A stretch of DNA of 64,000 bases from Crocinitomicaceae bacterium (GTDB lineage: Bacteria > Bacteroidota > Bacteroidia > Flavobacteriales_D > Crocinitomicaceae). Each line of letters begins with the position of its first letter. The first letter of the stretch is position 1. Below the pieces are notes generated by a model. The model ran no database searches. It was not told the origin of the DNA and saw nothing but the letters and a program-made list of their open reading frames with translations. Both the position numbers and the translations under genes were made by a program. This document shows positions 42,098 to 63,987 of the stretch, in pieces. The stretch is taken from assembly GCA_017983465.1 (NCBI GenBank), contig JAGOBK010000007.1, positions 33,685 to 97,684 on the forward strand. Direction: 5' to 3'.

Positions 42098-42516
42098 TTA
42101 TTATACCAAGTAACAACTTGCAAAAAGTCTTGATTCTTGACTTTATAGCGCATTTGAATCTCGTAATTTCCTTGTTCAAGCTTTTTGGACAAAAGACATG
42201 TTTGTAGGTTTTGATTTTTCATTGTAAAATCTGCTTTGCCGTGATTCATTCGAATAAATTCTAAATCTAGTTTTTGAATGTCTAGTTTAGATGTGTTGAC
42301 AAAACAGATTAACTCATCGCGATTAACAACTTGAATGGGATTTTTATAATCTGCAGCACGTTGTTGTGCATCAAAGTCCTCGTTAAAGGATTTTTCTTTG
42401 ATGTAATAATCCTCACTAATTAACTCTGAATCTTTTGAACTTATGACAACTGCCAACGTGACTATAAACGTCACAAAAGCAATCATGGCAATAATAATTC
42501 CGTTTCTAAATCTCAT
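42094..42516 (-). CDS. FixH-family protein
   Basis: 140 aa. One N-terminal TM plus a beta-rich periplasmic domain. Lies directly after ccoG. Confidence 0.65.
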   Translation of the reverse strand: MRFRNGIIIAMIAFVTFIVTLAVVISSKDSELISEDYYIKEKSFNEDFDAQQRAADYKNPIQVVNRDELICFVNTSKLDIQKLDLEFIRMNHGKADFTMKNQNLQTCLLSKKLEQGNYEIQMRYKVKNQDFLQVVTWYNK

Positions 42517-42519
42517 ATG

Positions 42520-43917: not shown

Positions 43918-43931
43918 ATTGATGGATTTAC

Positions 43932-45356
43932 TTATTTCTTAAGGATGTCACCTTGTGCGGGTTTTCCGTTAGCAACTTCCTTTAAAGACAGAACATAAGA
44001 CGCTACTTGTTGAATTTGAATTGGATTCAATAAGGCATCATGTGTTGGCATTCCATTTGGACGACCTAATTTGATCGTTGCAAATACATCTTTAATATCG
44101 TAACCGTAAATCCAGTTTTTGTCAGTTAAGTTTGGACCAACATCTCCTGAACCATCGGCTTTATGACACGTGACACAATTCACTCCAAAGGCTACTTTTC
44201 CAGCGGCTAAATCCGCACTTCCCGTCATTAAAGTAGCATTCGTTTCATCCACATTCATGGCCATTTTCTCACGGTAGGCAGCAATTTCTCTTTCTGCTTT
44301 CGCCATTTCTTTTTTGTAAGCTTTCTCCTGCAAATCAGATGTTCCCAAAACATGGTAATTGATGATGTAGATGAACGCAAATACAATAGTTGCAAAGAAA
44401 CCCCATACCCACCAAGGTGGAAGGTTATTATCTAATTCACGAATTCCATCGTATTCATGATCCATTAAAATGGTATGTTCTTCTTCAATAGGAACTGCGT
44501 CGGTCAAAATAGCATTGACTTTTTTAAATGTCTCCGCAACAACCGGAACTTGTTGTACTTCCTCTTTCTTAGGACGAACCATAGCTACCATCTGATAAAA
44601 CAAGTGGCGTAAGTAAAGAACGACGATTAATAGAATGATGTTCACTACTAATAAGGCGTACAAATCTGTGTTTTCAACTTGCAACCACGGCATTCCTTTT
44701 TCCGCCTCTCCCGCTTGCATGAAGTTCAAAGCATGACTTTCATTACTAATGAATAAAGACCCAGTCGTGATGACAATGATGAGTAATTTGGATTTATCAC
44801 CCATCTCAGCCACTTTTGTTCGGAAATAATCGGATTTCACATACGTCATAATTGCTCCAGCCAAAACGATAATGATCAAAATAAGGATCACCATTAAGAA
44901 AATCATCCAATTGAACATAGATAAATTTGCGACATAATCAGGTTTAGTTTCGGTACCGACTGTTGCTGTAGCGGTTGTATCGCTGGGAGTTGTAGTTACA
45001 ACCGGCGGAGCATCCACAAACGTTAAAATGGCATCGATTTCTTCTTTGGAAACGGTTTGTGGTGGCATGGCAGTTGGACTAAATCCAGACACTTCCTTCC
45101 CTCGGGCACTTTTACCAGATGCAATGAGTGCAGATGAATTCGTAATCCAATCGTAAATTAGATCACCTTCGCCAGCATCCACCCATTTTTGTTTGGCACC
45201 TTGTAGTTTTGGTCCAGTTGAGTTTTTGTCCACCATGTGACACGTATTACAACGGGACTTAAATAATTGTCCACCATCAGCGGCATACATTTTTCCCTGC
45301 GCGACCAAGCTGATTAAAAGCGCAACAAACGTCAGTTGTGTGAATTTAATTTTCAT
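43932..45356 (-). CDS. ccoP: CcoP-like cbb3 oxidase subunit with split haem-c domains
   Basis: 474 aa. Signal peptide, CNTCH domain, hydrophobic segments, FixP_N motif DHEYDGIRELDNNLPPWW, then the CVTCH domain. Confidence 0.75.
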   Translation of the reverse strand: MKIKFTQLTFVALLISLVAQGKMYAADGGQLFKSRCNTCHMVDKNSTGPKLQGAKQKWVDAGEGDLIYDWITNSSALIASGKSARGKEVSGFSPTAMPPQTVSKEEIDAILTFVDAPPVVTTTPSDTTATATVGTETKPDYVANLSMFNWMIFLMVILILIIIVLAGAIMTYVKSDYFRTKVAEMGDKSKLLIIVITTGSLFISNESHALNFMQAGEAEKGMPWLQVENTDLYALLVVNIILLIVVLYLRHLFYQMVAMVRPKKEEVQQVPVVAETFKKVNAILTDAVPIEEEHTILMDHEYDGIRELDNNLPPWWVWGFFATIVFAFIYIINYHVLGTSDLQEKAYKKEMAKAEREIAAYREKMAMNVDETNATLMTGSADLAAGKVAFGVNCVTCHKADGSGDVGPNLTDKNWIYGYDIKDVFATIKLGRPNGMPTHDALLNPIQIQQVASYVLSLKEVANGKPAQGDILKK

Positions 45357-45552
45357 GATGTGTTTGATTTGTGTTCGTATTCTCTTCTAGATCTAAAGGC
45401 ATGGCGCTCATTTCTGTCACTCTGTTATTCGACATTTTAATGACATACCATAACATTACTGCGAAGAATAGGGTAAACATGATTAGCGAAATCAAAGGGT
45501 AAATCTCGACACCGAGCATGCCCGTAAGGTTGTGTTTGATGAATCTTAACAT
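45346..45552 (-). CDS. ccoQ: CcoQ/FixQ-like small membrane subunit
   Basis: 68 aa with a single TM. Position between ccoNO and ccoP. Confidence 0.65.
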   Translation of the reverse strand: MLRFIKHNLTGMLGVEIYPLISLIMFTLFFAVMLWYVIKMSNNRVTEMSAMPLDLEENTNTNQTHHEN

Positions 45553-45557
45553 GTCGT

Positions 45558-47732
45558 TTATTTCGTTGGTTTCACTTTAACATCTGTTCCAAGTCGCTGC
45601 AAGTAGGCAATAATCGCAACGATGTCCTTCTGTTCGATTTCTTTAATCAAATCGTTTTTGTTTCGTCCCTTCAAGGCAATTTGATTGGTCGTATTCACGA
45701 TGTCTAATGCAATCAGATGTGCTTGAGCTTGAAGATCCTTTTTCGCTTTCTTATCATATCCCTCTGGATAAGGAACACCTAGCGTTTGCATTGCACGGAT
45801 TTTCGCACCGATGTTTTCAATATCCATATCGTCTTCACGCATCCATGGATATGCAGGCATGATGGATCCTGGAGTAATGACTTTTGGACGAATCATGTGG
45901 TTAAAGTGCCATAGGTTTCCACGAACGCCTCCTTCACGTGCCAAATCTGGACCAGTTCGTTTTGAGCCCCATTGGAATGGATGATCGTAAACGAATTCAC
46001 CGGATTTTGAATAAGCTCCGTAGCGTACTGTTTCAAAGCGCAATGGTCGAATTAACTGTGAGTGACAATTGTAACATCCTTCACGGATGTAAATATCTCG
46101 TCCATACAATTCAAGTGGCGTGTACGGTTTCACACTTTTAATGGTTGGAACATTGCTTTTAACGATCATCGTTGGAATGATCTCCACAATTCCACCAATG
46201 GCAACAATGACTAAACTGAGGATCATGAATTGAATTGGTTTACGTTCGATGACCTTGTGCCAATATTCTCCTTTCGTATTGACGTGTAATTCTTTGGTTA
46301 CAACTGCTTCTGTTTCTTCATTGGCAACTAATTTTCCAGATTTTGCTGTTTTCACTAAGTTGTAGAACATCAGGATGGCGCCACTTAGGTATAATAAACC
46401 TCCAAGAGATCTTAGATAGAAGAATGGTTTCATTTCAATGACAGTATCGACAAAGTTGTTCGCTAATGTTCCGTCTGGTTTGAATTCCTGCCACATTAAT
46501 CCTTGCATGAATCCGGCGATATACATTGGAATCGCATAAAGAATGATTCCTAAAGTGGCAATCCAGAAATGTTGGTTTGCCATTTTTGTAGAATACAATT
46601 TTGTGTTGTACAAACGAGGGAACAACCAATACAACATACCGAAGGTTAACATACCATTCCATCCTAGTCCACCGATGTGTACGTGAGCGATAGTCCAATC
46701 TGTAAAGTGAGAAATGACATTGATGTTTTTCAAAGAAAGCAATGGTCCTTCAAAGGTGGACATTCCATAACATGTTAATGCGACCACCATGAATTTCAAC
46801 AAAATATCATCGCGAACACGGTCCCAAGCTCCTCTTAAGGTAAGTAATCCATTCAACATTCCACCCCAAGACGGAGCGATTAACATGACAGAAAAGACAA
46901 CGCCCAAACTTTGCGCCCAATCCGGAAGGGTAGAGTACAATAAATGGTGTGGTCCAGCCCAGATGTACAAGAAAATCAAGGCCCAAAAGTGAATAATTGA
47001 TAAACGGTAAGAGTAAACTGGACGATTTGCAGCTTTCGGTACGAAGTAATACATCAAGCCCAAATACGGTGTAGTCAAGAAGAAGGCAACGGCATTGTGT
47101 CCATACCACCATTGAACCAATGCGTCTTGAACTCCGGCGTACCAAGAGTAGCTTTTTAAGAAAGAAACAGGTAATTCAAAGGAGTTGAAAATGTGCAGCA
47201 TCGCAACGGTTACGAATGTTGCAATGTAGAACCAAATGGCCACGTAAAGGTGTTTCACACGTCGAACCATGATCGTCGCGAACATGTTCCATCCCCAAAC
47301 TACCCAAATTCCAGCAATCATGATGTCGATCCACCATTCTAACTCTGCATATTCTTTTCCAGTGGTAATCCCGAAGGGCAATGTTGCAACCGCACAAACG
47401 ATGATTGTTTGCCATCCCCAGAAATGAATTTTACTGAGTTTGTCACTCCACAACCTCGTTTTTAACAAGCGCTGAAGGGAATAGTAAATTCCCATGAACA
47501 TTCCATTTCCAACAAAGGCAAAGATGACAGCATTGGTGTGAAGTGGACGCAAACGTCCAAAAGTCAGGTATTTAAATCCTAAATAGTCATTGAAAAATTC
47601 CGGAAATGCCAGCTGTAGTGCGGCGATTAATCCAACCAACATTCCTGTTACACCCCAAATAACAGTGGCGTAGGCAAAATTCCGAACGATTCGGTTGTCG
47701 TAACTAAACTTTTCTGCTTCCATATTACTCAT
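45558..47732 (-). CDS. ccoNO: cbb3-type cytochrome c oxidase, fused subunits I and II
   Basis: 724 aa. Haem-copper core with about 12 TM helices, followed by CcoO with CYNCH. Confidence 0.92.
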   Translation of the reverse strand: MSNMEAEKFSYDNRIVRNFAYATVIWGVTGMLVGLIAALQLAFPEFFNDYLGFKYLTFGRLRPLHTNAVIFAFVGNGMFMGIYYSLQRLLKTRLWSDKLSKIHFWGWQTIIVCAVATLPFGITTGKEYAELEWWIDIMIAGIWVVWGWNMFATIMVRRVKHLYVAIWFYIATFVTVAMLHIFNSFELPVSFLKSYSWYAGVQDALVQWWYGHNAVAFFLTTPYLGLMYYFVPKAANRPVYSYRLSIIHFWALIFLYIWAGPHHLLYSTLPDWAQSLGVVFSVMLIAPSWGGMLNGLLTLRGAWDRVRDDILLKFMVVALTCYGMSTFEGPLLSLKNINVISHFTDWTIAHVHIGGLGWNGMLTFGMLYWLFPRLYNTKLYSTKMANQHFWIATLGIILYAIPMYIAGFMQGLMWQEFKPDGTLANNFVDTVIEMKPFFYLRSLGGLLYLSGAILMFYNLVKTAKSGKLVANEETEAVVTKELHVNTKGEYWHKVIERKPIQFMILSLVIVAIGGIVEIIPTMIVKSNVPTIKSVKPYTPLELYGRDIYIREGCYNCHSQLIRPLRFETVRYGAYSKSGEFVYDHPFQWGSKRTGPDLAREGGVRGNLWHFNHMIRPKVITPGSIMPAYPWMREDDMDIENIGAKIRAMQTLGVPYPEGYDKKAKKDLQAQAHLIALDIVNTTNQIALKGRNKNDLIKEIEQKDIVAIIAYLQRLGTDVKVKPTK

Positions 47733-47883
47733 CTTTTAATTTTGGTTCGTCTTCAAAGAGCATGCGCACTGATGGCGTGTAGTCATCGTCAAACTGTCCG
47801 TTTTTTGTTGCCCACAAAAAGAAAAGCAAGAAAAAGCCAGCAATACAAAGGCTTACAATTAACATCAGATAGATCATTCCCAT
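47725..47883 (-). CDS. ccoS: cbb3 oxidase maturation protein CcoS/FixS (absent from the ORF track)
   Basis: Hand translation gives MGMIYLMLIVSLCIAGFFLLFFLWATKNGQFDDDYTPSVRMLFEDEPKLKDE* (52 aa). One TM followed by the GQFDD motif. The stop overlaps the ccoNO start (ATGAGTAA). Confidence 0.8.
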   Translation of the reverse strand: MGMIYLMLIVSLCIAGFFLLFFLWATKNGQFDDDYTPSVRMLFEDEPKLKDE

Positions 47884-47910
47884 GATGCAAATTTCCAAAA
47901 AGGTGCAACG

Positions 47911-47918
47911 AATAAGTA
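47911..47918 (-). promoter_or_regulatory. degenerate -7 box TACTTATT (ccoS operon)
   Basis: Six of eight positions match TACTTTTG. Its last base is 36.5 nt from the centre of the upstream palindrome, the same spacing as at hemN. Confidence 0.4.
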
Positions 47919-47941
47919 TGATGTAGATGTTTGAAAAAAAC

Positions 47942-47953
47942 TGATTTATATCA
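47942..47953. promoter_or_regulatory. FNR/CRP-type palindrome TGAT-TTAT-ATCA
   Basis: Perfect core of the TTGAT-N4-ATCAA consensus. It lies 3 nt after the ccoI stop, and its centre is 64.5 nt upstream of the ccoS ATG. Confidence 0.55.
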
Positions 47954-47956
47954 TGT

Positions 47957-50311
47957 TTATTCCAATCCTCGCCAATACTTGAAATGAATCAAGCTGGAAC
48001 TGAGAAAGACAACCGTTATGGAACTAATGGGCATTAAGATTGCCGCCACGATTGGTGATAGGGATGCGGAAATCGCAAAGGAAAGACCGATCAAGTTATA
48101 GGTAATAGAAAATCCGAGGCATACTTTTAACACGACTTTTGCGTACGTAGAAACTTGAAAAAACCGAGCGAGCAAATGAACATGCTTCGCATCTAAAATG
48201 GCATCAGAGGATGGGGTAAAACGAAACATGTCCTCCGATAAGGCAATACCGACATTCGCTGTTCCCAATGCGCCAACATCGTTAAGTCCATCACCCAACA
48301 TGAGGACTTTTTCACCTAATTTCTGTCTTTCTGCAATAAATGCAGCTTTGTCTTTTGGTTCCTGTTTGAAAAAACACTGATCCGCATGGAAGCCGAGTGA
48401 GATTAATTCGGGTAAGTCTTTCTCATCATCTCCTGAGAGGACAAAAATGCGTTTGTCAGTCAATTGTCCTAATACCGAAGAAACGGAAGCGCGAAAAGCA
48501 CTCTTGATGTGAATTTCTTGAATTACTTTTCCATCTTGAGCAAAAAATACGGTACCGTTTTCAGTTGAAGAAGAGACAGCTCCAACAAATGCAGAGCTTC
48601 CCAATTGATAGGATTTCTCATTGTATGTTGCTTGAATACCTTTTCCTTTGTGTTCGATGAAATGAGTGAGTTTTATAACGTGATTTTTGTCCTTCAACTG
48701 TTGATGAATTAATTTGGACAAGGGATGAGTGGAGTGGCTTGATAGCTCTCTCAAAACGTGCCATAATTCCTCGGTCATATTTTCATCTGAGAAATGGACT
48801 TGATGAGCCATTGGATCAGTCAAGGTGCCTGTTTTATCAAAAATGATGGTCGTGATTTCACTGAGTGCTTCTACAACTGTGGTGTTTTTTAAGTATAATC
48901 CATTTTTACCCAGAACACTCAGGGTATTTCCCAAAGTAAAAGGACTCGACAATGCAAGGGCGCAGGGACAAGCAACAATTAAAATGGAAACGATGACCGT
49001 CATGATTTTACTCGGATCGATGAAAGCCCATGTAATACCTGCAACGATGGCCACCATGATCAAAATGAGTAAAAAGTAGCGAGAGATTCGATCTTGGTAT
49101 CGTTCAAGAGTGTTGGATTCTTTTTTATCCTTGGTTTCGTTCCATAATTGGGTTAAATGGCTGCGGTTGGTTTCTGATTTCACCGCCAATTCAATGCTCA
49201 TTCCGATTAACTTTCCACCAGCATAGATCAAATCTCCTTTTTTCTTAGTGACTAAGGCCGATTCACCTGTGACAAAACTAAAGTCAAGTTGTGCTTCATC
49301 TGAAACTAAAATGCTATCACATGGAATGATTTCTTCATTTCTGACTTGAATTCGATCCCCTTCTTTCAGTTGCTCGATGGGAATGATTTCTGACCCTTTT
49401 TCAGAAATACGGTGAATAGCCACCGGAAAATAAGAAGAATAATCGCGGTCAAAGGAAAGCGACTGATACGTTCTATTTTGAAACCATTTTCCAATCAACA
49501 GGAAGAAAATGAATCCGGCAAAGCTATCCATGTATCCAGGTCCTTGCTGTGTGAAAATCTGATAGGTGCTTTGTGCGTAAAGGGCGAGTATTCCTAAGGT
49601 AATTGGTACATCTAAGTTGATGCTTCGACTTCGAACGGCTTTATAAGCGGATAAATAATATTCATTAGCGGAATAAAGAAAAACGGGCAATGACACAATG
49701 AAGGACAAATACGCCGTGAAATTCCGGAAGGATAAATTATCCAAGGTGATGCCAAAATAATCGGGCGCGCTCCAAAGCATGATGCTTCCAAAGGCAAATC
49801 CCGCAAGTCCAATTTTCAATAAAAATGATTTTTGAATCCCTTTTGCTTCTGTTTTTCGTCCAAAATCAGGCTCGTAACCGATGAATTGCAACAAATCGGC
49901 AATTTCGGAAAGGGAAATGGCATTTCGATCAAAAACAATGGTCGCTTCTTTTTTGGCGAAATGCACCTGAGAAGTGAGGACTTGGTTATTTATTTTGGAT
50001 AAATTTTCAAGAAGGTAAATACACGAAGAACAGTGAATGCTTGGTAAGGATAATTTTACACGGGCAATTTTTTCATCTTCGTATTGAATGTAACGAGCGC
50101 GAATTTCAGGAATATCTAAAAATTGGAATTTATCGCTGCGTCCTTTGTTTGGTTTGATTCCAGGTGTTTTCTCAAATTGGTAAAAATCCTTCAGGGAATT
50201 TGAATTCAACAAGGAATAAACGTTGGCGCAACCTTGACAACAAAATTCTTTTTGATCGAGTAGGATGGAAGGAGTTGGAAGGACATCTCCGCAGTGGTAA
50301 CAATTTTCCAT
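47957..50311 (-). CDS. ccoI: copper-translocating P-type ATPase CcoI/FixI
   Basis: 784 aa. N-terminal CYHCG...CCQGC metal-binding domain, HMA CSSC, CPC, DKTGT and GDGLND motifs. Confidence 0.9.
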   Translation of the reverse strand: MENCYHCGDVLPTPSILLDQKEFCCQGCANVYSLLNSNSLKDFYQFEKTPGIKPNKGRSDKFQFLDIPEIRARYIQYEDEKIARVKLSLPSIHCSSCIYLLENLSKINNQVLTSQVHFAKKEATIVFDRNAISLSEIADLLQFIGYEPDFGRKTEAKGIQKSFLLKIGLAGFAFGSIMLWSAPDYFGITLDNLSFRNFTAYLSFIVSLPVFLYSANEYYLSAYKAVRSRSINLDVPITLGILALYAQSTYQIFTQQGPGYMDSFAGFIFFLLIGKWFQNRTYQSLSFDRDYSSYFPVAIHRISEKGSEIIPIEQLKEGDRIQVRNEEIIPCDSILVSDEAQLDFSFVTGESALVTKKKGDLIYAGGKLIGMSIELAVKSETNRSHLTQLWNETKDKKESNTLERYQDRISRYFLLILIMVAIVAGITWAFIDPSKIMTVIVSILIVACPCALALSSPFTLGNTLSVLGKNGLYLKNTTVVEALSEITTIIFDKTGTLTDPMAHQVHFSDENMTEELWHVLRELSSHSTHPLSKLIHQQLKDKNHVIKLTHFIEHKGKGIQATYNEKSYQLGSSAFVGAVSSSTENGTVFFAQDGKVIQEIHIKSAFRASVSSVLGQLTDKRIFVLSGDDEKDLPELISLGFHADQCFFKQEPKDKAAFIAERQKLGEKVLMLGDGLNDVGALGTANVGIALSEDMFRFTPSSDAILDAKHVHLLARFFQVSTYAKVVLKVCLGFSITYNLIGLSFAISASLSPIVAAILMPISSITVVFLSSSLIHFKYWRGLE

Positions 50312-50313
50312 AG

Positions 50314-51681
50314 TTAGATGGTTGCTGAAAACAAGGGTTTTCCTCCTTGGTATTTATGTAAATCTAGGTCAAAAGCCATGCAGATATTTCGTACAAACGG
50401 ATAACCTTTTTCGGTCACCGTAACGGTTGATCCATTCACGGTCACAAGTCCGTCTTCGACTAATGGTTTGAGCTTTTCTCGAATGAAATCATGCGTATCA
50501 GTATGTTTTGATTCTGCTACAAAGGATGTTTCGAAATGACACATCAAATCCAAAATGTAAGAACGGATTTCCAGTTCTAATTCATTAAGAAGGTGTCCGC
50601 GAAAAACAGCTAATTCTCCACGATTGATTTGTTCCTGATACGACTCGACAGTCTTGTCATTTTGTGCAAATCCAGTCCAGCTGTCTGAAATCGCAGACAT
50701 TCCCAGTCCGAGTAAGAACTTCGTCGTTTGAGTCGTATATCCCATGAAATTGCGGTGCAAACGTTTTTCATGAAATGCTTGTGCTAATTTGTCGCTTGGT
50801 AAGGCGAAATGATCCATTCCAATCGCCACGTATCCACTAGAAATCAATTTTTCACAGGCCAACTCATACAGCGCACGTTTTTCGCTGTCCTGAGGTAAAT
50901 CCTTCTCATCGTATCCGCGTTGTCCAGTACCTTTAATCCATGGGACATGCGCATACCCGTAAAGTGCAATGCGTTCAGGATGAAATTGAATGGTATAATC
51001 AATGGTTTGCTCAAATCCTTCTAGACTTTGGTGGGGCAATCCGTAGACCAGGTCATGGTTGACGGAAACATATCCAATTCTTTTCGAATGAGCATGGACC
51101 GCTTGAATTTCTTCAAATGTCTGCATGCGGTGAATCGCTTTTTGAACGATTGGGTTGTAATCCTGAATACCAAAACTCACACGTCTAAAACCAAAGTCAT
51201 AGAGTGTTTGTAAGTGTAATTCACTTGTTGAATTCGGATGTGCTTCGAAACTTAAATCACAGAGAATTGGATCAATTTTATTCGTTTGAAAAATCCCCTT
51301 CAATAAACGCACTAATTCCGTTGGATGAAAAAAGGTTGGAGTCCCACCGCCAAAATGCAATTCAGAAATATGGATGTCTTTTGGCAAGTGTTTTTTGTAC
51401 AAATTCCATTCTTTTAAGACCGCATCGATGTACGGTGATTCTACTTCATGGTTTTTGGTGATGCGTTTATGGCAACCGCAAAAAGTACAAAGTGACTCGC
51501 AAAATGGTAAATGGATATAAATGCCGATAGATGAATCTGGAAATTCTCGGAAAGCATGCTTCAATTCTGTTAACCATTCGCTCGAATTCAGCTGGTCTTT
51601 TTTCCAAAATGGGACCGTTGGATAGGAAGTATACCTTGGTCCGGGAACATTGTATTTTTGAATTAACGCTTTGGCATCCAT
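50314..51681 (-). CDS. hemN: oxygen-independent coproporphyrinogen III oxidase (radical SAM)
   Basis: Start re-set to MDAKALIQKYNVPGPRYTSYPT. CESLCTFCGC cluster. 455 aa. Confidence 0.9.
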   Translation of the reverse strand: MDAKALIQKYNVPGPRYTSYPTVPFWKKDQLNSSEWLTELKHAFREFPDSSIGIYIHLPFCESLCTFCGCHKRITKNHEVESPYIDAVLKEWNLYKKHLPKDIHISELHFGGGTPTFFHPTELVRLLKGIFQTNKIDPILCDLSFEAHPNSTSELHLQTLYDFGFRRVSFGIQDYNPIVQKAIHRMQTFEEIQAVHAHSKRIGYVSVNHDLVYGLPHQSLEGFEQTIDYTIQFHPERIALYGYAHVPWIKGTGQRGYDEKDLPQDSEKRALYELACEKLISSGYVAIGMDHFALPSDKLAQAFHEKRLHRNFMGYTTQTTKFLLGLGMSAISDSWTGFAQNDKTVESYQEQINRGELAVFRGHLLNELELEIRSYILDLMCHFETSFVAESKHTDTHDFIREKLKPLVEDGLVTVNGSTVTVTEKGYPFVRNICMAFDLDLHKYQGGKPLFSATI

Positions 51682-51685
51682 AGGA

Positions 51686-51693
51686 CAAAAGTA
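51686..51693 (-). promoter_or_regulatory. -7 promoter box TACTTTTG (hemN)
   Basis: TAnnTTTG match 4 nt upstream of ATG 51681. Identical octamer and spacing to purT. Confidence 0.5.
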
Positions 51694-51716
51694 AAGGCTG
51701 TAAATTGTTGAAAAAA

Positions 51717-51728
51717 TGACCTTTATCA
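51717..51728. promoter_or_regulatory. FNR/CRP-type palindrome TGAC-CTTT-ATCA
   Basis: Seven of eight core positions of TGAT-N4-ATCA. The centre is 41.5 nt upstream of the hemN ATG and 36.5 nt from the end of the -7 box. Confidence 0.5.
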
Positions 51729-51754
51729 TATTTCAAAAAATCACTTAAAATCCG

Positions 51755-51762
51755 TACATTTG
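51755..51762 (+). promoter_or_regulatory. -7 promoter box TACATTTG (fnr-like gene)
   Basis: TAnnTTTG match 19 nt upstream of ATG 51782. Confidence 0.4.
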
Positions 51763-51781
51763 ATAGACAAAATCCAATCTA

Positions 51782-52471
51782 ATGCTCGAAAAATCACACA
51801 AACATATCACTTGTTCGACCTGTGTTGGAAGAAAAAATTCACTATTAGGATCGTTGTGCAACGAAGAGATGGACCATGTCAACGCGCACAAGGCTTGTAA
51901 TTACTACAAAAAACACCAATCTCTGTTTTTAGAAGGTTCTTTTCCAAGGGGTGTTTTTTGCATCAATGAGGGAATGGTGAAGGTATTTCAACGTGGAGAC
52001 GAAGGCAAGGAGCAAATCATTCACATTGCAAAATCAGGTGAAATGGTTGGATTTAGATCAATGTTTAGTGAAACGCCTTACCGTGTTGCTGCTGAAACGC
52101 TAGAGGAAAGCAACATTTGTTTTATCAGTAAGGATGATTTTTTAAACATGATGGACTCCAATCCTGTTTTGCGTAATGGAATTATCAAAGAGCTTTCGAA
52201 GGAGTTATCAGATCGAGCAGATTTCATTACCAACATGGCTCAAAAGTCGGTACGTGAACGTCTGGCATTTACCATGATCATCCTCATGGAGATTTATGAA
52301 AAGGAACCAATCAACCTCTCTCGTGAGGATTTAGCTAATTTTGTTGGGACGGCTACAGAAACCTTAATTCGTCTTTTAAAGGACTTTAAAGAAGAAGGAA
52401 TCATCGAAGTTCACACACGAAAAATCAGTGTCCTGAACAAGGAAAAGTTATTTACCATCGCAGGGAAATAG
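51782..52471 (+). CDS. Crp/Fnr-family transcriptional regulator with N-terminal Cys cluster
   Basis: 229 aa. Cys at positions 11, 14, 26 and 39. cNMP-binding-like barrel. C-terminal HTH (REDLANFVGTATETLIRLL). Confidence 0.8.
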   Translation: MLEKSHKHITCSTCVGRKNSLLGSLCNEEMDHVNAHKACNYYKKHQSLFLEGSFPRGVFCINEGMVKVFQRGDEGKEQIIHIAKSGEMVGFRSMFSETPYRVAAETLEESNICFISKDDFLNMMDSNPVLRNGIIKELSKELSDRADFITNMAQKSVRERLAFTMIILMEIYEKEPINLSREDLANFVGTATETLIRLLKDFKEEGIIEVHTRKISVLNKEKLFTIAGK

Positions 52472-54138: not shown

Positions 54139-55032
54139 TTAGCTGTTTTTACTTTGATGAAACAAGAAATCTTTCTCTGTTTTACTCAGCGAATCATAGC
54201 CGGATTTGGAGATTTTATCCAAAATCTGGTCCATTTTCACCTGTTTTTGACGTTTTTCGGTATTAAATTCCTCATCCGTCTTAAATCGTGTCCGTGTGGA
54301 CTTTGCCTTTTTTTCACGTTTAAAAACTGTTTTGAAGCGCGATAGTAGGCCATCAATTTTGTTTAAAATGTTTTTCGGGGAATGTAGGTTTTGTATGGAC
54401 AATAATCCAAAAATGGCACCACCCAAATGGGCGAAGTGGGCGATTTGATCATCCGTACCAATATTGATCAAGTCCTTGAATAAAAAGAACAAAGCCAAGA
54501 AGTAAATACGGATTGGAAAAATGCCAAATAAGTTGACTTGTAGATTCGGTTGATAGAAAGCCAGTGCAGTAAAAATGGCCATGATGGAACCGGAAGCTCC
54601 GAGAATAACGACATTTGTCCCTTGCAATGCGGGAAAAAGATTATTGGCTAAAAGTTCCAATATCCCACCAGCAATTCCTCCGAATAAATAGGTCAACCAC
54701 AACTTTTTTCTACTGAAGTATTGTTCGAAAAATCGTCCCGAAAAATAGAGAAACAACATGTTGAACAATAAATGTCCAAATTGTTCATGCGTAAAGATAC
54801 TGGTTACGAGTCCCCATGGCGCACGTATAAATGCTGAAAATGAACTATTTAAGTCAAATAATTGATGAATCCATCCATCGCTCATTAATGGATCGATGTT
54901 GAAAAGCAATAAACTCTTTTTGATCAATAGTAGCGATAGAAAAACACAGACATTGACGATAATCAAGCGATTAGTCATTGTCCCGGAACGCAATTGGAAC
55001 CTTAGTTCATCTATGAAATTTCTACCTTGCAT
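54139..55032 (-). CDS. rhomboid-family intramembrane serine protease
   Basis: 297 aa. HLLFNM, GASGSI and AHLGGAIFG catalytic motifs. Charged C-terminal tail. Confidence 0.8.
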   Translation of the reverse strand: MQGRNFIDELRFQLRSGTMTNRLIIVNVCVFLSLLLIKKSLLLFNIDPLMSDGWIHQLFDLNSSFSAFIRAPWGLVTSIFTHEQFGHLLFNMLFLYFSGRFFEQYFSRKKLWLTYLFGGIAGGILELLANNLFPALQGTNVVILGASGSIMAIFTALAFYQPNLQVNLFGIFPIRIYFLALFFLFKDLINIGTDDQIAHFAHLGGAIFGLLSIQNLHSPKNILNKIDGLLSRFKTVFKREKKAKSTRTRFKTDEEFNTEKRQKQVKMDQILDKISKSGYDSLSKTEKDFLFHQSKNS

Positions 55033-55767
55033 TTACCAAAAGTTTGATCGGTCCGCTTTTCTCCAAAACAGGACAATGATTGCTCCTACGATTGCTCCAC
55101 CGACATGTGCTAAATGAGCCGTGCTGTCGTTTGCGTTATTCTGAAAAGAAAGGTAAACTTCGATCAAGAAATAAGCAGCGACGAAGTATTTCGCTTTTAC
55201 TGGAATGGCAAAATAAAGTCGAAACTCCGTATTTGGAAAAAGAATCGCGAAGGCCGCCATCACACCAAAAATTGCTCCTGATGCTCCAACCATTGGCGTG
55301 AACGATTGTTGCGCGTATCCGATAACGGCAGAGCTGTTAGTTGCAAGTAATGCGTCTCGGTCATTGTTCAAGATCAGTTGATTGATTTCTGAAATACTGA
55401 ATCCTTGGTCAATGATCATTGCTTTGAATTCCATTACTTCCATGACACCCATGATGTTATACAGGGCAAATGCGCCAAGTGCAGTGGAAATATAGAAAAT
55501 GAAAAAGCGTTTTGGTCCCCAAATATGTTCTAAGTATGCGCCTAAAATCGCAAAGAGGTACATGTTGAAGAGTATGTGAAAAAATCCACCATGCATAAAG
55601 AAATGCGTGACAATTTGAAAGGGTTTAAATAGCGGAGTATTCACGATGTGCGCTCCAAGACTATCGGTTAAGTCAATTCCTTGTGTTTGAAGCACCACGG
55701 TCGCTAAAAAGAACATGATGTTCAGTAGGATGATGTTTTTCGTTACTTGAGGAAGGTTGTTTAACAT
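55033..55767 (-). CDS. rhomboid-family intramembrane serine protease
   Basis: 244 aa. HILFNM, GASGAIFG and AHVGGAIVG motifs. Confidence 0.8.
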   Translation of the reverse strand: MLNNLPQVTKNIILLNIMFFLATVVLQTQGIDLTDSLGAHIVNTPLFKPFQIVTHFFMHGGFFHILFNMYLFAILGAYLEHIWGPKRFFIFYISTALGAFALYNIMGVMEVMEFKAMIIDQGFSISEINQLILNNDRDALLATNSSAVIGYAQQSFTPMVGASGAIFGVMAAFAILFPNTEFRLYFAIPVKAKYFVAAYFLIEVYLSFQNNANDSTAHLAHVGGAIVGAIIVLFWRKADRSNFW

Positions 55768-57750: not shown

Positions 57751-59004
57751 TTACATTCGAACAATAGTACCGCGGTATTCACCTTTCTCCCCTTGAACAG
57801 GATGTTGAATAACGACCTTCCAAATGTACGCCTTGTTACCTGGTACAAGTTTTCCATCTCGGCGATCAATTCCATCCCACGCATTACCTGCGTCAGTTGA
57901 TTCGAATACGAGTCCACCGTTATCTGGATCCAAAACGATTAATTTGAACGGTGTTTGACGAATGGTTAATGCAAAAGGCATAAACGTGTTGTTTCGGCTA
58001 TCCTGTGATTGTGGATTAAATGCATTCACTGCGAGAAGATTGTAGTCAGATGGAATCTGTATCATTTCTTTTTCTTTCGCGATACAGCCGTTACTGCCAA
58101 TGGCTTGCACTTCAACGATGGCATATCCTTTATCGAACGCCAATAACTCAACATTTTTTCCTGTATTCGTATTGAGGATATTTGTCGAATGCCATGTGAT
58201 TTGTCCTTCACTAGATTCAGCTTGAATGCTCATTTTTGGCAATCCATCTTCGTAATTTAGGATGCGATCCGAATTGATGTTTAAGGTAGGAGTTGCGCTC
58301 ACGACAAAACTTCCAAATTCTTCAAATTGTCCGTAGGGACCTGAATTCGCGGTCAAGGTTACTTTTCCTGGCTCCGTTAATTTCAATGAAATGACTTCGT
58401 TGTAAGAAAAATGAAGTTCTTTTCCAGCATAACTAACCATTCGTTCATGGCGTTTATCTGCCTCCAACTGCAACGTTTCACCTTGACATCTATTTTTGAA
58501 ATCAATGATCGCTACGCGTCCGTTATAGGATGGTGTTGGTTCTTGATGGTCAATTGTTTGATCCGTTAAACCTAAGACGTCCATTTGATCTAAAATGAGT
58601 GGGATCGAATGAGGGATAAGTTCAGTGATGACAACTGGTGGTGTAAATCTTGGGCTCATCAAAGGCTCGGTCTCATTTGGATTCGTTCCATTAACAGCTG
58701 CACTTTGTGGAGTTGAAGAGGATGTTTTACTTTGATTAGGTGCAACAGTAGTGGGGGAATTCGTTTCCTTTTTGGCAGTTTTATTGTGTGTTTCTTTGAT
58801 GCTGCGGTTAGCCGAAGTAGGCAGGACAACATACGCCGCAATGACTATGGCAATAACCAAAGCAGCGGACCATTTGATCTGTGTTGCCTGATACCATTTT
58901 TTAGCGCTCAATTTTTTATTCAAGGATTCCCATGCTTGTGCATCGTAAGGAATCTCGAAATGATTCAAGGCCTCTTTAAAGCTATTTTCTAAACCATCTT
59001 TCAT
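57751..59004 (-). CDS. anti-sigma-positioned single-pass membrane protein with T9SS type-B (CHU_C-like) C-terminal domain
   Basis: 417 aa. No cleavable signal peptide. TM at about residues 46-61. S/T/P/N-rich linker. C-terminus NAFNP..NNTFMP..LVFES..WDG..Y.W.V...GTIV. Confidence 0.65.
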   Translation of the reverse strand: MKDGLENSFKEALNHFEIPYDAQAWESLNKKLSAKKWYQATQIKWSAALVIAIVIAAYVVLPTSANRSIKETHNKTAKKETNSPTTVAPNQSKTSSSTPQSAAVNGTNPNETEPLMSPRFTPPVVITELIPHSIPLILDQMDVLGLTDQTIDHQEPTPSYNGRVAIIDFKNRCQGETLQLEADKRHERMVSYAGKELHFSYNEVISLKLTEPGKVTLTANSGPYGQFEEFGSFVVSATPTLNINSDRILNYEDGLPKMSIQAESSEGQITWHSTNILNTNTGKNVELLAFDKGYAIVEVQAIGSNGCIAKEKEMIQIPSDYNLLAVNAFNPQSQDSRNNTFMPFALTIRQTPFKLIVLDPDNGGLVFESTDAGNAWDGIDRRDGKLVPGNKAYIWKVVIQHPVQGEKGEYRGTIVRM

Positions 59005-59573
59005 TTGTCGATGTTTACAAATTTTTCATTTAATATGCGTTGAAGGTTCATTTTCGCCTTCGCCAAATTGGATTTTGAGGTTCCTTCGTTGATACCTAAA
59101 AGTTCAGCAATCTCTTTATGAGTGTGATCTTCCAAAACAAACAAGTTAAAAACAGTTCGGTAAGCTGGAGAAAGTTTTGCAATAGCTTCCATGGCTATTT
59201 CAGCCTTTAAATCAATAACATCTAATTCTTCTCGCTCCACTAACTCATCGCGTGCCGCTTGTTTAAAGTCGGTGTCCTGGTCACTCAAAAATGGATTTCG
59301 TTTGGCTTTTCGAAGAGCGTCTATCGCTGTGTTTGCCACGATGCGACGAATCCATCCCTCCAATGAACCTTTGAAATCAAAAACCTCCAATTTGTCAAAG
59401 ACCTTTAAAAATGCCTCTTGAAGAACCTCTTGTGCGGTGTCGCGATCCGTCATGTAGCGCAAACAAACCACCATCATTTTTCCGTAAAATTGCTTAAATA
59501 ACACCTCCTGCGAACGTCGTTCGCCACGGATGCATCCCTCCACAATTTCTCTTAAATGACCCTGGTTCTCCAA
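59001..59573 (-). CDS. ECF-type RNA polymerase sigma-70 factor
   Basis: 190 aa. Region 2 (FKQFYGKMMVVCLRY..DTAQEVLQEAF) and region 4 HTH (HKEIAELLGINEGTSKSNL). Apparent TTG start. ATGA overlap with the downstream gene. Confidence 0.85.
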   Translation of the reverse strand: MENQGHLREIVEGCIRGERRSQEVLFKQFYGKMMVVCLRYMTDRDTAQEVLQEAFLKVFDKLEVFDFKGSLEGWIRRIVANTAIDALRKAKRNPFLSDQDTDFKQAARDELVEREELDVIDLKAEIAMEAIAKLSPAYRTVFNLFVLEDHTHKEIAELLGINEGTSKSNLAKAKMNLQRILNEKFVNIDK

Positions 59574-59722
59574 TTTTCAACAATTTTAAAACGACGCTAA
59601 GGTACGTCGGTTGCCTCTTAGAATAAATAAAATGGAAAAATACGTCCAAATAAACTAAATTTTCCTCAAATTCACTAAATTCGTGTCGCTATTAAGCAAG
59701 TACGAACTAATACATAGATCAA

Positions 59723-60726: not shown

Positions 60727-62118
60727 TTAGTTCAGTTCAATCGCACCAATATCCGGTGGATTGTTTCGGGGATTCCCGAGAATATCCGTTACTACGCTGG
60801 TGTTCACCCCAGTTCCTTGTAAATCTGAATTACTTCCAAAGGTAAAATCAAATTCAGTTGGATTCGTGAAAAGAGCGCTTCCATTCCAGATTACGCTTGC
60901 ATCGTAGAAGGAGTCTGTGTAAACTTCTTCGGAGCGTAACAGCGTGTTTTTAAAGTCAAAATTTAACACCACTCCGGACATCTGAATGGTATCCATGGCG
61001 AATTCAGTTGTTAAGTTTCCTGTTACGACACAATTGTATAGTTTTCCTTCGTCAATAGAAGACACGTTGGTTTGTCCGGCATTATAGTCCGTGTAATAAT
61101 TACTGATTCCAACTGCTGGATTCGTTGAACTGCCGTATCCAAGTAGGTCACAATGATTGAAGTTGAAGTCGCCGCCTTGAAGGACAAACAAGGCATGTGT
61201 CCCGTTTTTTGCAACGATGCAATTCTCAGCTTTCACTTTCGCTCCAGCAAAAATGAAGACACCGTAGCGTGCTTGATTTTTGATGATCGTGTTGGTCATT
61301 GTGAGCGTGTATCCGGAATTCGTTGGGTCTTCGTCATACAAGTGAACACCGGATGTCCCATTTTTTATAATAGCATAGTCGATGGTACATGGACGCGCTT
61401 GTTGAAAGTAAATGCCGTAAAATTGTCCACTGACATTTTGATAATCTTGCTCCAAGCGATCTCCTTCGATGATGACTTCATTGCCAAGCGTCCCTTGAAT
61501 GTTTAAGGTCGATTTGTACACATACAAAATGGCGTTTTTGTGCATGTAAATATGTGTCCCAGCTTGAATGTTTAATGTTTTTGCAGAGTCAACCGCTGCG
61601 TAGCCATAGACAACATGTGGTTTGTCGTTTGGCCAAATGCCTTCATTTAAATCTTTGTAATGAAAATAAGCGTCTTGTCCCCATGCAGCAAGTTTCACGT
61701 ATTGGTTTTTTTCGTTGGACTTAAACCGTATGGAATCCTCTATAACCAAGGGTAAATTCGTTCCGTTTGGATCCAAGGTAACTTCAACAAATACAAACAA
61801 ACTATCTCCTCCTTCGATATAGAGGTCCTCGATTTGCGTTCCTTGTAGTCCATCAACATTCATGGAAAATTTGGAATTCGTTCCACCCATTAATTCGATT
61901 TCGTCAATTTTAATCGTTTTGGAGTCCTTGTTGTAAATTTTAAATTGCTGTGTCGTTGATCCGATGGTCGTAAACACGGTATCAAAAACAACGGTATCCT
62001 TTGAGAAACTCAAATTATTTTTTGATAATATGACATGCTTTCCACAAGAGCTTGTGCTCAAGGTGAAAAGAACGAGTAAGCAGCCGAAAATGGTAGAAAA
62101 GAATAATCTCATGTGCAT
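60727..62118 (-). CDS. lipoprotein with Ig-like N-terminal domain and right-handed beta-helix
   Basis: 463 aa. Lipobox LSTSSC. Repetitive beta-helix-like turns. C-terminus DILGNPRNNPPDIGAIE. Confidence 0.6.
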   Translation of the reverse strand: MHMRLFFSTIFGCLLVLFTLSTSSCGKHVILSKNNLSFSKDTVVFDTVFTTIGSTTQQFKIYNKDSKTIKIDEIELMGGTNSKFSMNVDGLQGTQIEDLYIEGGDSLFVFVEVTLDPNGTNLPLVIEDSIRFKSNEKNQYVKLAAWGQDAYFHYKDLNEGIWPNDKPHVVYGYAAVDSAKTLNIQAGTHIYMHKNAILYVYKSTLNIQGTLGNEVIIEGDRLEQDYQNVSGQFYGIYFQQARPCTIDYAIIKNGTSGVHLYDEDPTNSGYTLTMTNTIIKNQARYGVFIFAGAKVKAENCIVAKNGTHALFVLQGGDFNFNHCDLLGYGSSTNPAVGISNYYTDYNAGQTNVSSIDEGKLYNCVVTGNLTTEFAMDTIQMSGVVLNFDFKNTLLRSEEVYTDSFYDASVIWNGSALFTNPTEFDFTFGSNSDLQGTGVNTSVVTDILGNPRNNPPDIGAIELN

Positions 62119-62199: not shown

Positions 62200-63408
62200 A
62201 TGAAACAAACTATTTTTTTTAGTTTACTCTTACTTTTTTCCTTTATTTCCTTTGGTCAACCACCGAATGGAACCCTGAATACACCACAAAGCACCAATCA
62301 TATGGGTGTTACTGAAAATGGGCTAAACTTGTCCAAAGAAAAACTGAATGTCAATGTAAATTTCGAATCCAATTCACTGTTGAAACTAGACTCCAGTTAT
62401 TTCAATGTGAATCAAAAATTCGAGGAGCGAGAAGATTCAAACGAACAAGATGATACGAAGGACCTTCGTGAGACGGACAAAACAGTTCAGGTTTTTTCCG
62501 CTTTTTCGCTTGTTCGTCAAAACTCTAAATTGAATAAATTTCAGCGTACACCATTAGCAGCTGAACAAGCCGAAATGGATGCCAAAGTAAAGCAACTTGA
62601 ATTAATTTCCCCTCATTCATGGGAATATCCATTGGCGTATTATTTAGCTGGAAATTACAATTTGGATCGATCACCGGCACTTGAAAAAGCGTATCAGATG
62701 AATCCGGAAAATCTCGAAGTTCAAAAACAATATGTTTCACTTAAATTGATGAATGGCGATACCATCAGTGTTCAAAACGCGCTTGCCGTGATGTCCGTCA
62801 ATAATGTCATTACGTTGGAAGTAGAAACCTACACAAGTGATGTATTGACCTCTTGTGCCATGAACTCCACGTTGATTACGCATGGCTTTGAGGACACCTA
62901 TGGCGCTTTGCTCAATCAATTTAGTTACCAACAACGATTGGACGTCAATGTGGTTTCCTTGGATTTCATGCAAAGTCCACAATACCGAAAAGCCTTAGAG
63001 GGAAAAGGGTATGTCCTGCCGAAGTCGACCAAAATTGACGTTGGATACTTGAGTCAATTCTGTTACTTAAATGCCGACAAGGGACTTTTTCTTTCGGTGA
63101 CGATTCCAAGGAATTACTTAGAGCCAATTTCCAAAAAACTATTTCCCGTCGGACTTACCTTTCAGTACGCGAATGCACCGGCACTAGATTTACCTTCAAG
63201 ACAAGAGACTTTTTGGTTTGAACAATTCAATAAGTACGGATTGACCGAATCGGAGGAGCGCAGCAAATTCGCCATGAATTACATTCCCATGTTGATGTAT
63301 TTGGAACAGAAATACATTCAGGAAGGAAATGAAGTTTTGTTGCTGCAAATCCGAGAAAGCATGGATTTTATTCTTGGAAAGAAAGTCATAAAAAAGGCGG
63401 GTAATTAG
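62200..63408 (+). CDS. exported hypothetical protein
   Basis: 402 aa. Signal peptide (LLLLFSFISFGQ). No recognised motif. Its stop abuts the sigma gene start (TAGATG). Confidence 0.55.
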   Translation: MKQTIFFSLLLLFSFISFGQPPNGTLNTPQSTNHMGVTENGLNLSKEKLNVNVNFESNSLLKLDSSYFNVNQKFEEREDSNEQDDTKDLRETDKTVQVFSAFSLVRQNSKLNKFQRTPLAAEQAEMDAKVKQLELISPHSWEYPLAYYLAGNYNLDRSPALEKAYQMNPENLEVQKQYVSLKLMNGDTISVQNALAVMSVNNVITLEVETYTSDVLTSCAMNSTLITHGFEDTYGALLNQFSYQQRLDVNVVSLDFMQSPQYRKALEGKGYVLPKSTKIDVGYLSQFCYLNADKGLFLSVTIPRNYLEPISKKLFPVGLTFQYANAPALDLPSRQETFWFEQFNKYGLTESEERSKFAMNYIPMLMYLEQKYIQEGNEVLLLQIRESMDFILGKKVIKKAGN

Positions 63409-63987
63409 ATGAAATTCTTTCGTAAATCGATATCAGACTGGAGTGATGAGTCCTTGATGCATGCATTGGGACAAGGGAATCAGTCTGCTTTTACGGAATT
63501 GTATGATCGTTATTCAGGGAAATTAAAAGGGTATTTCCGAAACATGCTTTGGCGTGATGACGAAAAAGCGGAGGATTTTGTCCATGATTTGTTTGCGAAA
63601 ATCATTCAGCATCCGGAATCGTTTGACACTTCTCGCTCCTTTAAAACATGGCTTTTCTCTGTAGCAAGTAATATGTGTAAAAATGAGTACAAACGAATGG
63701 AAGTAAGAAAAAACACGATTCACGGTGTGGATACATCTTTCGCTCCGTCCAACGAAAATGTCTTAAATCAAGTTCAGGATGCACAGTTCTTAGCTGAATT
63801 CGAAGAGAAATTACAAGAATTAGATGAAAAACACCGATCGGTGTTTACCTTGCGTCACCTCGATGGACTTGCCTTAAAAGAAATTGCCGAGATTTTAGAC
63901 ATTAATGAGGGAACAGTGAAGTCGCGCCTGTTTTATGCGACAAAATTTTTAGCGAATCAACTAAGTGTTTATCAATTAGCACAATAA
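63409..63987 (+). CDS. ECF-type RNA polymerase sigma-70 factor
   Basis: 192 aa. Region 2 (FTELYDRYSGKLKGYF..AEDFVHDLF) and region 4 HTH (LKEIAEILDINEGTVKSRL). Confidence 0.85.
   Translation: MKFFRKSISDWSDESLMHALGQGNQSAFTELYDRYSGKLKGYFRNMLWRDDEKAEDFVHDLFAKIIQHPESFDTSRSFKTWLFSVASNMCKNEYKRMEVRKNTIHGVDTSFAPSNENVLNQVQDAQFLAEFEEKLQELDEKHRSVFTLRHLDGLALKEIAEILDINEGTVKSRLFYATKFLANQLSVYQLAQ

Follow-up and report, generated by a model that had tools for sequence, protein, structure and literature searches.

In the classical RseA-sigmaE and RsiW-sigmaW systems, where regulated proteolysis frees the sigma factor, the anti-sigma gene lies just 3' of the sigma gene and is co-transcribed with it, the anti-sigma factor is a single-pass membrane protein with its N-terminus inside, and the pair is autoregulated from an AAC/CGT promoter. 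In the FlgM-sigma28 checkpoint, the anti-sigma factor is soluble, carries a signal for a secretion machine and is wholly exported by the flagellar type III system, and expression follows the state of that machine. In FecR-FecA-FecI and the SusC-linked trans-envelope systems of Bacteroidota, the anti-sigma factor touches a beta-barrel of the outer membrane with its periplasmic C-terminus and passes the state of the barrel to a sigma factor of the extracytoplasmic function (ECF) class; the RsgI-type anti-sigma factors of Firmicutes bind sigma through a short cytoplasmic end, which one transmembrane (TM) helix and a long linker join to an extracytoplasmic binding domain that can be swapped. Type IX secretion system (T9SS) sorting domains of type B stay uncleaved and bind PorP-like barrels (PMC9143113), and in P. 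gingivalis an ECF sigma factor is informed of the status of the T9SS by PorA, a protein with a T9SS C-terminal domain (CTD) (PMC7712824). We examined an operon within 64,000 nt of DNA (the window) from a Crocinitomicaceae bacterium (GTDB lineage Bacteria; Bacteroidota; Bacteroidia; Flavobacteriales_D; Crocinitomicaceae), assembly GCA_017983465.1, contig JAGOBK010000007.1, positions 33,685-97,684 of the forward strand. The piece under study, 57,751-59,573 (all positions are those within the window), encodes an ECF sigma factor and, overlapping it, a putative anti-sigma factor of 417 amino acids (aa) whose C-terminal domain is almost certainly a divergent relative of the type-B sorting domains. 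The features of the operon, in the order of transcription and then along the 417-aa protein, are:

59591-59615, minus strand: ECF-type operon promoter, GGCAAC-N16-CGT (sole match in the window, conserved in 75 loci).
59001-59573, minus strand: ECF (group IV) sigma-70 factor, 190 aa, TTG start (Sigma70_r2 and Sigma70_r4_2; TIGR02937).
57751-59004, minus strand: single-pass membrane protein, 417 aa, putative anti-sigma factor (start within the ATGA overlap with the sigma stop codon).
58903-59004, minus strand: N-terminal module, probably cytoplasmic, aa 1-34 (invariant residues; motif also in a sister family).
58822-58872, minus strand: TM helix, aa 45-61 (apolar segment).
58513-58821, minus strand: disordered tether, probably periplasmic, aa 62-164 (AlphaFold2 predicted local distance difference test, pLDDT, below 50).
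58054-58512, minus strand: two immunoglobulin (Ig)/PKD-like beta-sandwich domains, aa 165-237 and 238-317 (pLDDT about 90).
57754-58053, minus strand: divergent homologue of the T9SS type-B (CHU_C) sorting domain at the extreme C-terminus, aa 318-417 (hhalign and profile hidden Markov model, HMM).

Gene order, predicted topology and promoter type are those of the RseA and RsiW systems, whereas the cytoplasmic part of the 417-aa protein would be a two-helix module of about 35 aa, with neither a zinc motif nor a match to an anti-sigma Pfam model, and its periplasmic part would consist of the tether, the two Ig domains and the sorting-domain homologue. The logic of the FecR systems would be shared, but the 417-aa protein had no match to the FecR domain, no TonB-dependent receptor that could serve as transducer lies beside the operon, and its outer-membrane partner is hypothetical. 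RsgI follows the same plan with an unrelated sequence, and works in a Gram-positive envelope with carbohydrate-binding modules as its sensors. With FlgM the concept is held in common, but the 417-aa protein is membrane-anchored and its machine would be the T9SS. In T9SS type-B cargo (SprB-SprF, PG1035-PorP; PMC9143113) the homologous domain also stands at the extreme C-terminus; the 417-aa protein differs from such cargo in its conserved 44-aa N-region and membrane anchor in place of a cleavable Sec signal peptide, in its degenerate PNGDGIND motif and scores below the curated cut-offs, and in having no porP-like gene adjacent. In the PorA-PorXY-SigP system (PMC7712824, PMC12152298) a T9SS-CTD protein likewise informs an ECF sigma factor, but PorA is a secreted type-A cargo which signals via a two-component system and PorX, with no membrane anti-sigma factor.

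A reading made earlier from the sequence only had noted that the C-terminus of the 417-aa protein resembles the type-B sorting domain. To provide a canonical comparison set, metagenome contigs were scanned for DNA encoding FTPNGDGIND, which gave 118 C-terminal domains; those sampled from this set reached 38-95 bits with the Pfam model CHU_C (PF13585). When 253 C-termini of the family to which the 417-aa protein belongs were compared with the 118 canonical domains by hhalign, the probability was 98.4% (E 4.7e-15) across 96 columns, that is, the whole domain; against the same set the protein's two Ig-like domains reached 0.2-0.3%, and column-shuffled alignments 0.1-12.6%. An HMM of the canonical domains matched 252 of the 253 family C-termini (median 21.6 bits, maximum 35.9), where the best shuffled sequence scored 6.5 bits and reversed sequences gave zero matches; the window protein itself scored 19.7 bits over aa 313-414. 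The domain reached the last residue of the protein in all of the 150 best profile matches, and the 417-aa protein accordingly shows both the whole-domain homology and the extreme C-terminal position of a sorting domain. From these comparisons we regard it as almost certain that the C-terminal domain is homologous to type-B sorting domains, of which it would be a divergent descendant.

The resemblance did not extend to the curated models or to the signature motif. On CHU_C the window protein gave E 0.033 and 14.8 bits (gathering cut-off 27), and on NCBIfam TIGR04131 there was no match at E<=1. The same weak, collinear CHU_C match was seen in 15 of 32 relatives; one relative exceeded the Pfam cut-off, at 28.2 bits, and TIGR04131 scores of the relatives were 13-18 bits (cut-off 35). 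Neither HMM nor regular expression found a canonical CHU_C protein in 0.94 Mb of related loci. The Asp-rich NGDGIND stretch, which had been described as degenerate, is indeed so: PNGDGIND aligns to PQSQDSRNN, and in place of the conserved (F/V)(T/S)PNGDGIND the window protein has FNPQSQDSRNN and the family consensus is FNPNSxDxRNxTF. The sequence-only reading had named a C-terminus below the thresholds of sorting-domain models as a result that would refute it, and in the formal sense this is the result obtained; homology stands nonetheless, because the profile-profile comparison is decisive and because a sister family of the same architecture passes TIGR04131. These same scores and the loss of the Asp-rich motif, together with family-specific invariant residues in the C-terminal domain and the lack of any T9SS gene in the operon, would fit a sorting-domain descendant that had become a plain periplasmic Ig-like sensor or anchor, binding peptidoglycan, a glycan or some unrelated protein and functionally separate from the T9SS, in an otherwise ordinary ECF envelope-stress pair. 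We judge this exaptation, the second of the two mechanisms offered in the sequence-only reading, unlikely, though well worth keeping in view, and the sister family bears upon it directly.

The sister family is seen at L170, a canonical-domain locus taken at random, where an ECF sigma gene is directly followed by the gene for a 366-aa protein. The latter carries the N-terminal motif of the window family (28 bits on the HMM of the family's N-termini) and a TM helix; a long linker leads on to a PKD domain, and the protein ends in a canonical VFTPNGDGINDF... type-B domain. Its relatives, 320-390 aa in length with full-coverage matches, have the motif and TM helix in common, pass TIGR04131 with 41-51 bits (cut-off 35) and are named in databases, NCBI among them, as [quoted passage not shown] or "T9SS type B sorting domain-containing protein"; one example is from Parvicella tangerina, a sequenced named species. 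The window and sister families have diverged between their conserved ends, with the N-terminal motif common to both, and their sigma factors are 39-43% identical, compared with 28% for the second ECF sigma factor of the window. With a sister family that has the canonical domain, a bona fide type-B domain was most likely part of the architecture from its origin, and the window family would be a divergent branch. That origin, and the retention of the canonical domain in many lineages, argue against the exaptation described above.

The sigma protein scored 51 bits on Sigma70_r2 and 59 bits on Sigma70_r4_2 in Pfam, and 85.4 bits on NCBIfam TIGR02937 (cut-off 42.9); a protein of 190 aa with sigma-2 and sigma-4 domains only, and a score above the curated cut-off, belongs to the ECF class. 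The TTG start at 59573 that had been read from the sequence is borne out by the orthologues, in which a TTG or GTG start followed by Glu-Asn stands at the same position. The -10 CGT of the promoter is 17 nt upstream of this TTG. In 75 related loci GGCAAC-N16/17-CGT lies about 40 nt 5' of the sigma start, and it alone is kept, the remaining intergenic DNA 5' of sigma being fully diverged; elsewhere in 943 kb of related loci there were just 4 further matches, which is chance level. The site at 59591-59615, which has the AAC-type -35 and CGT-type -10 of promoters used by ECF sigma factors, was the single match to GGCAAC-N16-CGT within the window, which would also fit the exaptation view. The sister family has a related element, TGCAACC-N16/17-(G/A)TCT. 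Because ECF promoters classically show the -35/-10 pattern of GGCAAC-N16/17-CGT, autoregulation of the operon is most likely, and from the sequence the sigma factor presumably uses the promoter of its own operon.

Sigma and partner genes were found together throughout. Window-family loci numbered 84, of which 7 were cut by contig ends; in each of the 77 with upstream DNA a sigma open reading frame (ORF) lay directly 5' of the partner, overlapping it by 4 nt in 47. The ATGA overlap at 59001-59004 that had been reported for the window was confirmed from the ORF coordinates. The operon is flanked in the window by mutL and by a divergently transcribed malate dehydrogenase gene (mdh), and the pairing was kept where this wider neighbourhood differs (L004, L085, L086); in the sister family the ECF sigma gene was directly 5' in 5 of 5 loci (L170 and four more) with unrelated neighbourhoods. 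By its overlap with the sigma gene and by this adjacency, the 417-aa gene holds the position of an anti-sigma gene, directly downstream of and by this measure co-transcribed with its sigma gene. The claim that a partner in anti-sigma position is coupled to the ECF sigma factor is thus well supported, by the overlap, by adjacency in 77 of 77 loci, by its persistence in unrelated neighbourhoods and by the ECF-type promoter, and we consider a sigma/anti-sigma pairing to be likely.

Several observations on the neighbourhood stand beside these counts. A sub-branch with a protein of about 355-377 aa, some 50-60 residues shorter than the window protein, occupies the same mdh-sigma-X-mutL locus (L044, L051, L054, L061-L078 and similar). 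Just 3' of mutL, two genes from the 417-aa ORF, are two tandem genes for rhomboid-family intramembrane proteases (54139-55767, minus strand); these were considered as the protease that would release sigma and were rejected, since loci with another neighbour in place of mutL do not have the linkage, which is therefore probably coincidental. At one sister-family locus a PorP_SprF gene lies 4 kb off, perhaps by chance, and at one a second CHU_C protein, of 607 aa, is encoded directly 3' of the putative anti-sigma gene (L211, 6233-8056); this last and L208 150-1151 are possible hints of linkage to the T9SS, each a single observation.

The N-terminal module was predicted by AlphaFold2 as two amphipathic helices (aa 2-15 and 22-32) within residues 1-34, joined by a conserved E-x-P-Y-D turn, with low pLDDT. 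Residues E6, E17, Y20 and W25 are invariant in the family alignment, and the motif consensus is MKDNLEKSFKESLENFELPYDAKAWESLSKKLD; an apolar segment comes after it, near residue 45. The absence of a zinc-binding HxxxCxxC motif noted in the sequence-only reading holds, as the motif is excluded by the lack of any Cys in residues 1-44; the single TM helix likewise corresponds to an apolar segment, WSAALVIAIVIAAYVVL, at aa 45-61. Among 233 family members the apolar segment had a median length of 19 residues and started near residue 45. Lys plus Arg came to 3.5 before this segment and 2.3 after it in the window family, and the region before it is a conserved 44 aa, compared with 4 aa in the genome's own T9SS cargo protein. 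The conserved N-region and the K+R bias before the helix point to an N-in protein. They also fit the view that no cleavable signal peptide is present, with no cleavage motif conserved across the family, and by these sequence features the 417-aa protein appears to lack the cleavable N-terminal Sec signal peptide of T9SS cargo. The length of the apolar segment was dropped as a means to tell signal peptide from anchor, being a crude measure without discrimination.

The 417-aa protein has neither HxxxCxxC nor an anti-sigma domain of about 80-90 aa known to family models, the two hallmarks of classical anti-sigma factors. It might therefore be no anti-sigma factor at all, but merely a sigma-dependent target, a membrane-anchored or oddly signalled surface protein, with the sigma factor controlled otherwise. 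The missing family match and zinc motif agree with this, as do an N-terminal module of about 35 aa, far shorter than classical anti-sigma domains, and the low AlphaFold2 confidence of that module. We nonetheless think it improbable: in conservation the N-terminal 34 residues rank second among the parts of the protein, their motif is common to the sister family though the middle has diverged, and adjacency of sigma and partner is universal, with start/stop overlap. Short two-helix anti-sigma modules also exist, as in the CnrY class. We infer that the two-helix module of about 35 aa binds the sigma factor. A tandem double copy of the N-terminal motif precedes the TM helix in seven relatives (P0171, P0173, P0204, P0209, P0214, P0224, P0230); should the motif bind sigma, these would have two binding modules.

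Conservation was greatest at the two ends of the protein. Against 18 distant members, about 35% identical overall, identity was highest in the C-terminal domain (66%) and next in the N-terminal 34 residues (49%), with 25-32% in the Ig domains and 13% in the tether; the two ends are by this measure the constrained, partner-binding parts. The linker and beta-rich region that lie between were as the sequence-only reading had described them. In its S/T/P/N-rich linker the residues T, N, S, E, K and P abound, with pLDDT below 50 and disorder at aa 35-154, and its beta-rich region was modelled as beta-sandwich domains across aa 170-417 with pLDDT of about 90. The Ig-like domains had weak PKD/PKD_4 matches in relatives, and a fold search with the whole model returned generic tandem Ig-like proteins. 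Two Cys (aa 173 and 307), one per Ig-like domain, are invariant in the 32-member alignment; a periplasmic disulfide would fit. The length of the tether is kept in the family, the median being about 104 aa (some of the estimates, a minority, are unreliable), and it would be long enough to cross the periplasm to the outer membrane. A kept length of about 100 aa suggests outer-membrane reach rather than sensing inside the periplasm, and this again speaks against a sorting-domain fold exapted as a periplasmic sensor.

A profile search with the C-terminal domain returned 823 clusters (50% identity) at E<=0.001, with 153 at E<=1e-30. Full-length proteins among the 150 best matches were mostly about 360-500 aa, and nearly all had the N-terminal motif. 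Members of the window family are labelled "hypothetical protein" in databases and come from Crocinitomicaceae, Flavobacteriales and Bacteroidota metagenome-assembled genomes. The architecture extends beyond one genome and forms a large, apparently undescribed group in hundreds of Flavobacteriales lineages.

The mechanism that we propose is an anti-sigma relay across the envelope, on the lines of FecR-FecA, which would report on the T9SS or the cell surface. The sigma factor is transcribed from an ECF-type promoter, presumably its own, and is translationally coupled to its single-pass inner-membrane partner, whose two-helix cytoplasmic module (about 35 aa) would keep it inactive, as the cognate anti-sigma factor. 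The tether of about 100 aa and the two Ig-like domains would bring the C-terminal domain to the outer membrane, where it would dock on a conserved partner, the likeliest being a PorP/SprF-like outer-membrane barrel or the T9SS translocon. An altered contact (loss, pulling or engagement) may then open the tether or the membrane helix to proteolysis, upon which sigma would be released. The relay is favoured because type-B domains stay uncleaved and bind PorP/SprF-like barrels (PMC9143113). For an autoregulated ECF sigma/anti-sigma pair whose periplasmic tip is docked on a T9SS-associated partner, taken as a whole, we would put the chance a little short of even; the docking of the C-terminal tip to such a partner, taken by itself, is possible but somewhat doubtful. 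It is unlikely, on what we have, that the protein goes as far as to link the cytoplasm to the T9SS so that one end is engaged, and possibly pulled or exported, by PorP/SprF-SprA and the other end holds sigma, with transcription gated by the activity or load of the T9SS or of gliding. The sequence features listed in the sequence-only reading all lie where it had placed them, and its interpretation was supported in part: the coupling of sigma to a partner in anti-sigma position and the type-B descent of its tip were upheld.

A number of results weigh against the docked relay. The 417-aa protein scored below both curated type-B models and has lost PNGDGIND, and its domain may for those reasons no longer engage the T9SS. 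The C-terminal domain was modelled with pLDDT 88.6, and a fold search with this domain alone gave nothing at E<=0.001; the best match, at E 0.043, was PorZ, a T9SS protein, which is compatible with an Ig-like CTD fold and is not decisive. No porP/sprF-like gene, a common neighbour of type-B cargo genes, adjoins the operon, its neighbours being mdh and mutL, and a search for a regulon by the promoter motif found no second site in the 64-kb window and with it no tie to a T9SS gene. At the other end of the protein, anti-sigma family models of Pfam and NCBIfam had no match in the 417-aa protein or in 32 relatives, the N-terminal motif matched no solved structure in a sequence-profile search of the PDB (at most coiled-coil noise), and AlphaFold2 confidence in the module was low. 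A search of the PDB by sequence profile with the C-terminal domain likewise gave no hits or just coiled-coil noise.

The secretion checkpoint put forward in the sequence-only reading differs from docking in that the C-terminal domain would be a working export signal: the tether would be cleaved, the Ig-Ig-CTD part exported and anchored on the surface, and the remaining stub degraded to free sigma, the activity of which would then track T9SS throughput. The long, poorly conserved tether is a possible protease substrate for such an event, and the export of FlgM by the flagellar type III system is a conceptual precedent. A second precedent is PorA-PorXY-SigP (PMC7712824). The proposal is more attractive for the sister family, whose architecture is identical and whose canonical domain scores above the TIGR04131 cut-off. 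In the window family PNGDGIND is gone and neither curated model is passed; conservation within the protein is greatest in this domain, unlike what a disposable export tag would show, no processing site is kept across the family, and no cognate porP-like gene adjoins. Secretion-coupled release is on this evidence distinctly unlikely, and docking of an uncleaved tip remains the reading that we prefer.

Among the other genes of the window, 38306-41236 (plus strand) encodes a 976-aa protein with Sortilin/Vps10-type repeats and a type-A T9SS sorting domain (Por_Secre_tail, 52.6 bits); from this type-A cargo it follows that the genome uses the T9SS. A respiratory cluster at 41357-52471 holds genes of a cbb3-type cytochrome oxidase (fused CcoN/O, CcoP-like, FixG-like), and with them genes for a P-type ATPase, a DsbD_2 membrane protein, a radical-SAM protein and a Crp/Fnr-type regulator. 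Between mdh and a second sigma locus is the gene (60727-62118, minus strand) for a 463-aa right-handed beta-helix protein, the N-terminus of which is like a lipoprotein signal (…LSTSSCGK). The second ECF sigma gene (63409-63987, plus strand) abuts an upstream ORF of 402 aa (62200-63408, plus strand) with a weak TPR match only. Its downstream partner lies beyond the end of the window; in related loci this partner combines about 100 aa of cytoplasmic sequence with a TM helix, and does not carry the N-terminal motif of the 417-aa family.

An ECF/anti-sigma pair with a regulon that includes T9SS genes has been reported in Flavobacterium psychrophilum (PMC9723704); it was considered as a relative and set aside, since its anti-sigma factor is only about 150 aa and the pair is not of this architecture. 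Full-text searches that joined a sigma or anti-sigma factor with a type-B CTD, TIGR04131, SprF, the T9SS or the gliding motility-associated C-terminal domain found no such protein described, with a passing mention in the supplementary tables of the ECF classification paper being possible. The ECF sigma/anti-sigma pair is of a known kind; the periplasmic module with a sorting-domain homologue is unprecedented, and PorA-PorXY-SigP comes closest to it in concept.

Little is understood of the way in which Bacteroidota adjust gene expression to the condition of the T9SS and of gliding, the sole worked case being PorXY-SigP in Porphyromonas. With a sorting-domain homologue at the end by which a putative anti-sigma factor would sense, there is a concrete hypothesis that can be tested genetically. 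For annotation, it means that the name "T9SS type B sorting domain-containing" may in some cases stand on a regulator in the inner membrane and not on a cargo protein. If the coupling to the T9SS is true, it would be a new link of transcription to the secretion and motility machine; and if transcription is gated by the T9SS, the 417-aa protein and its relatives would represent a membrane-tethered counterpart of the FlgM checkpoint, present as two sister families across the Flavobacteriales.

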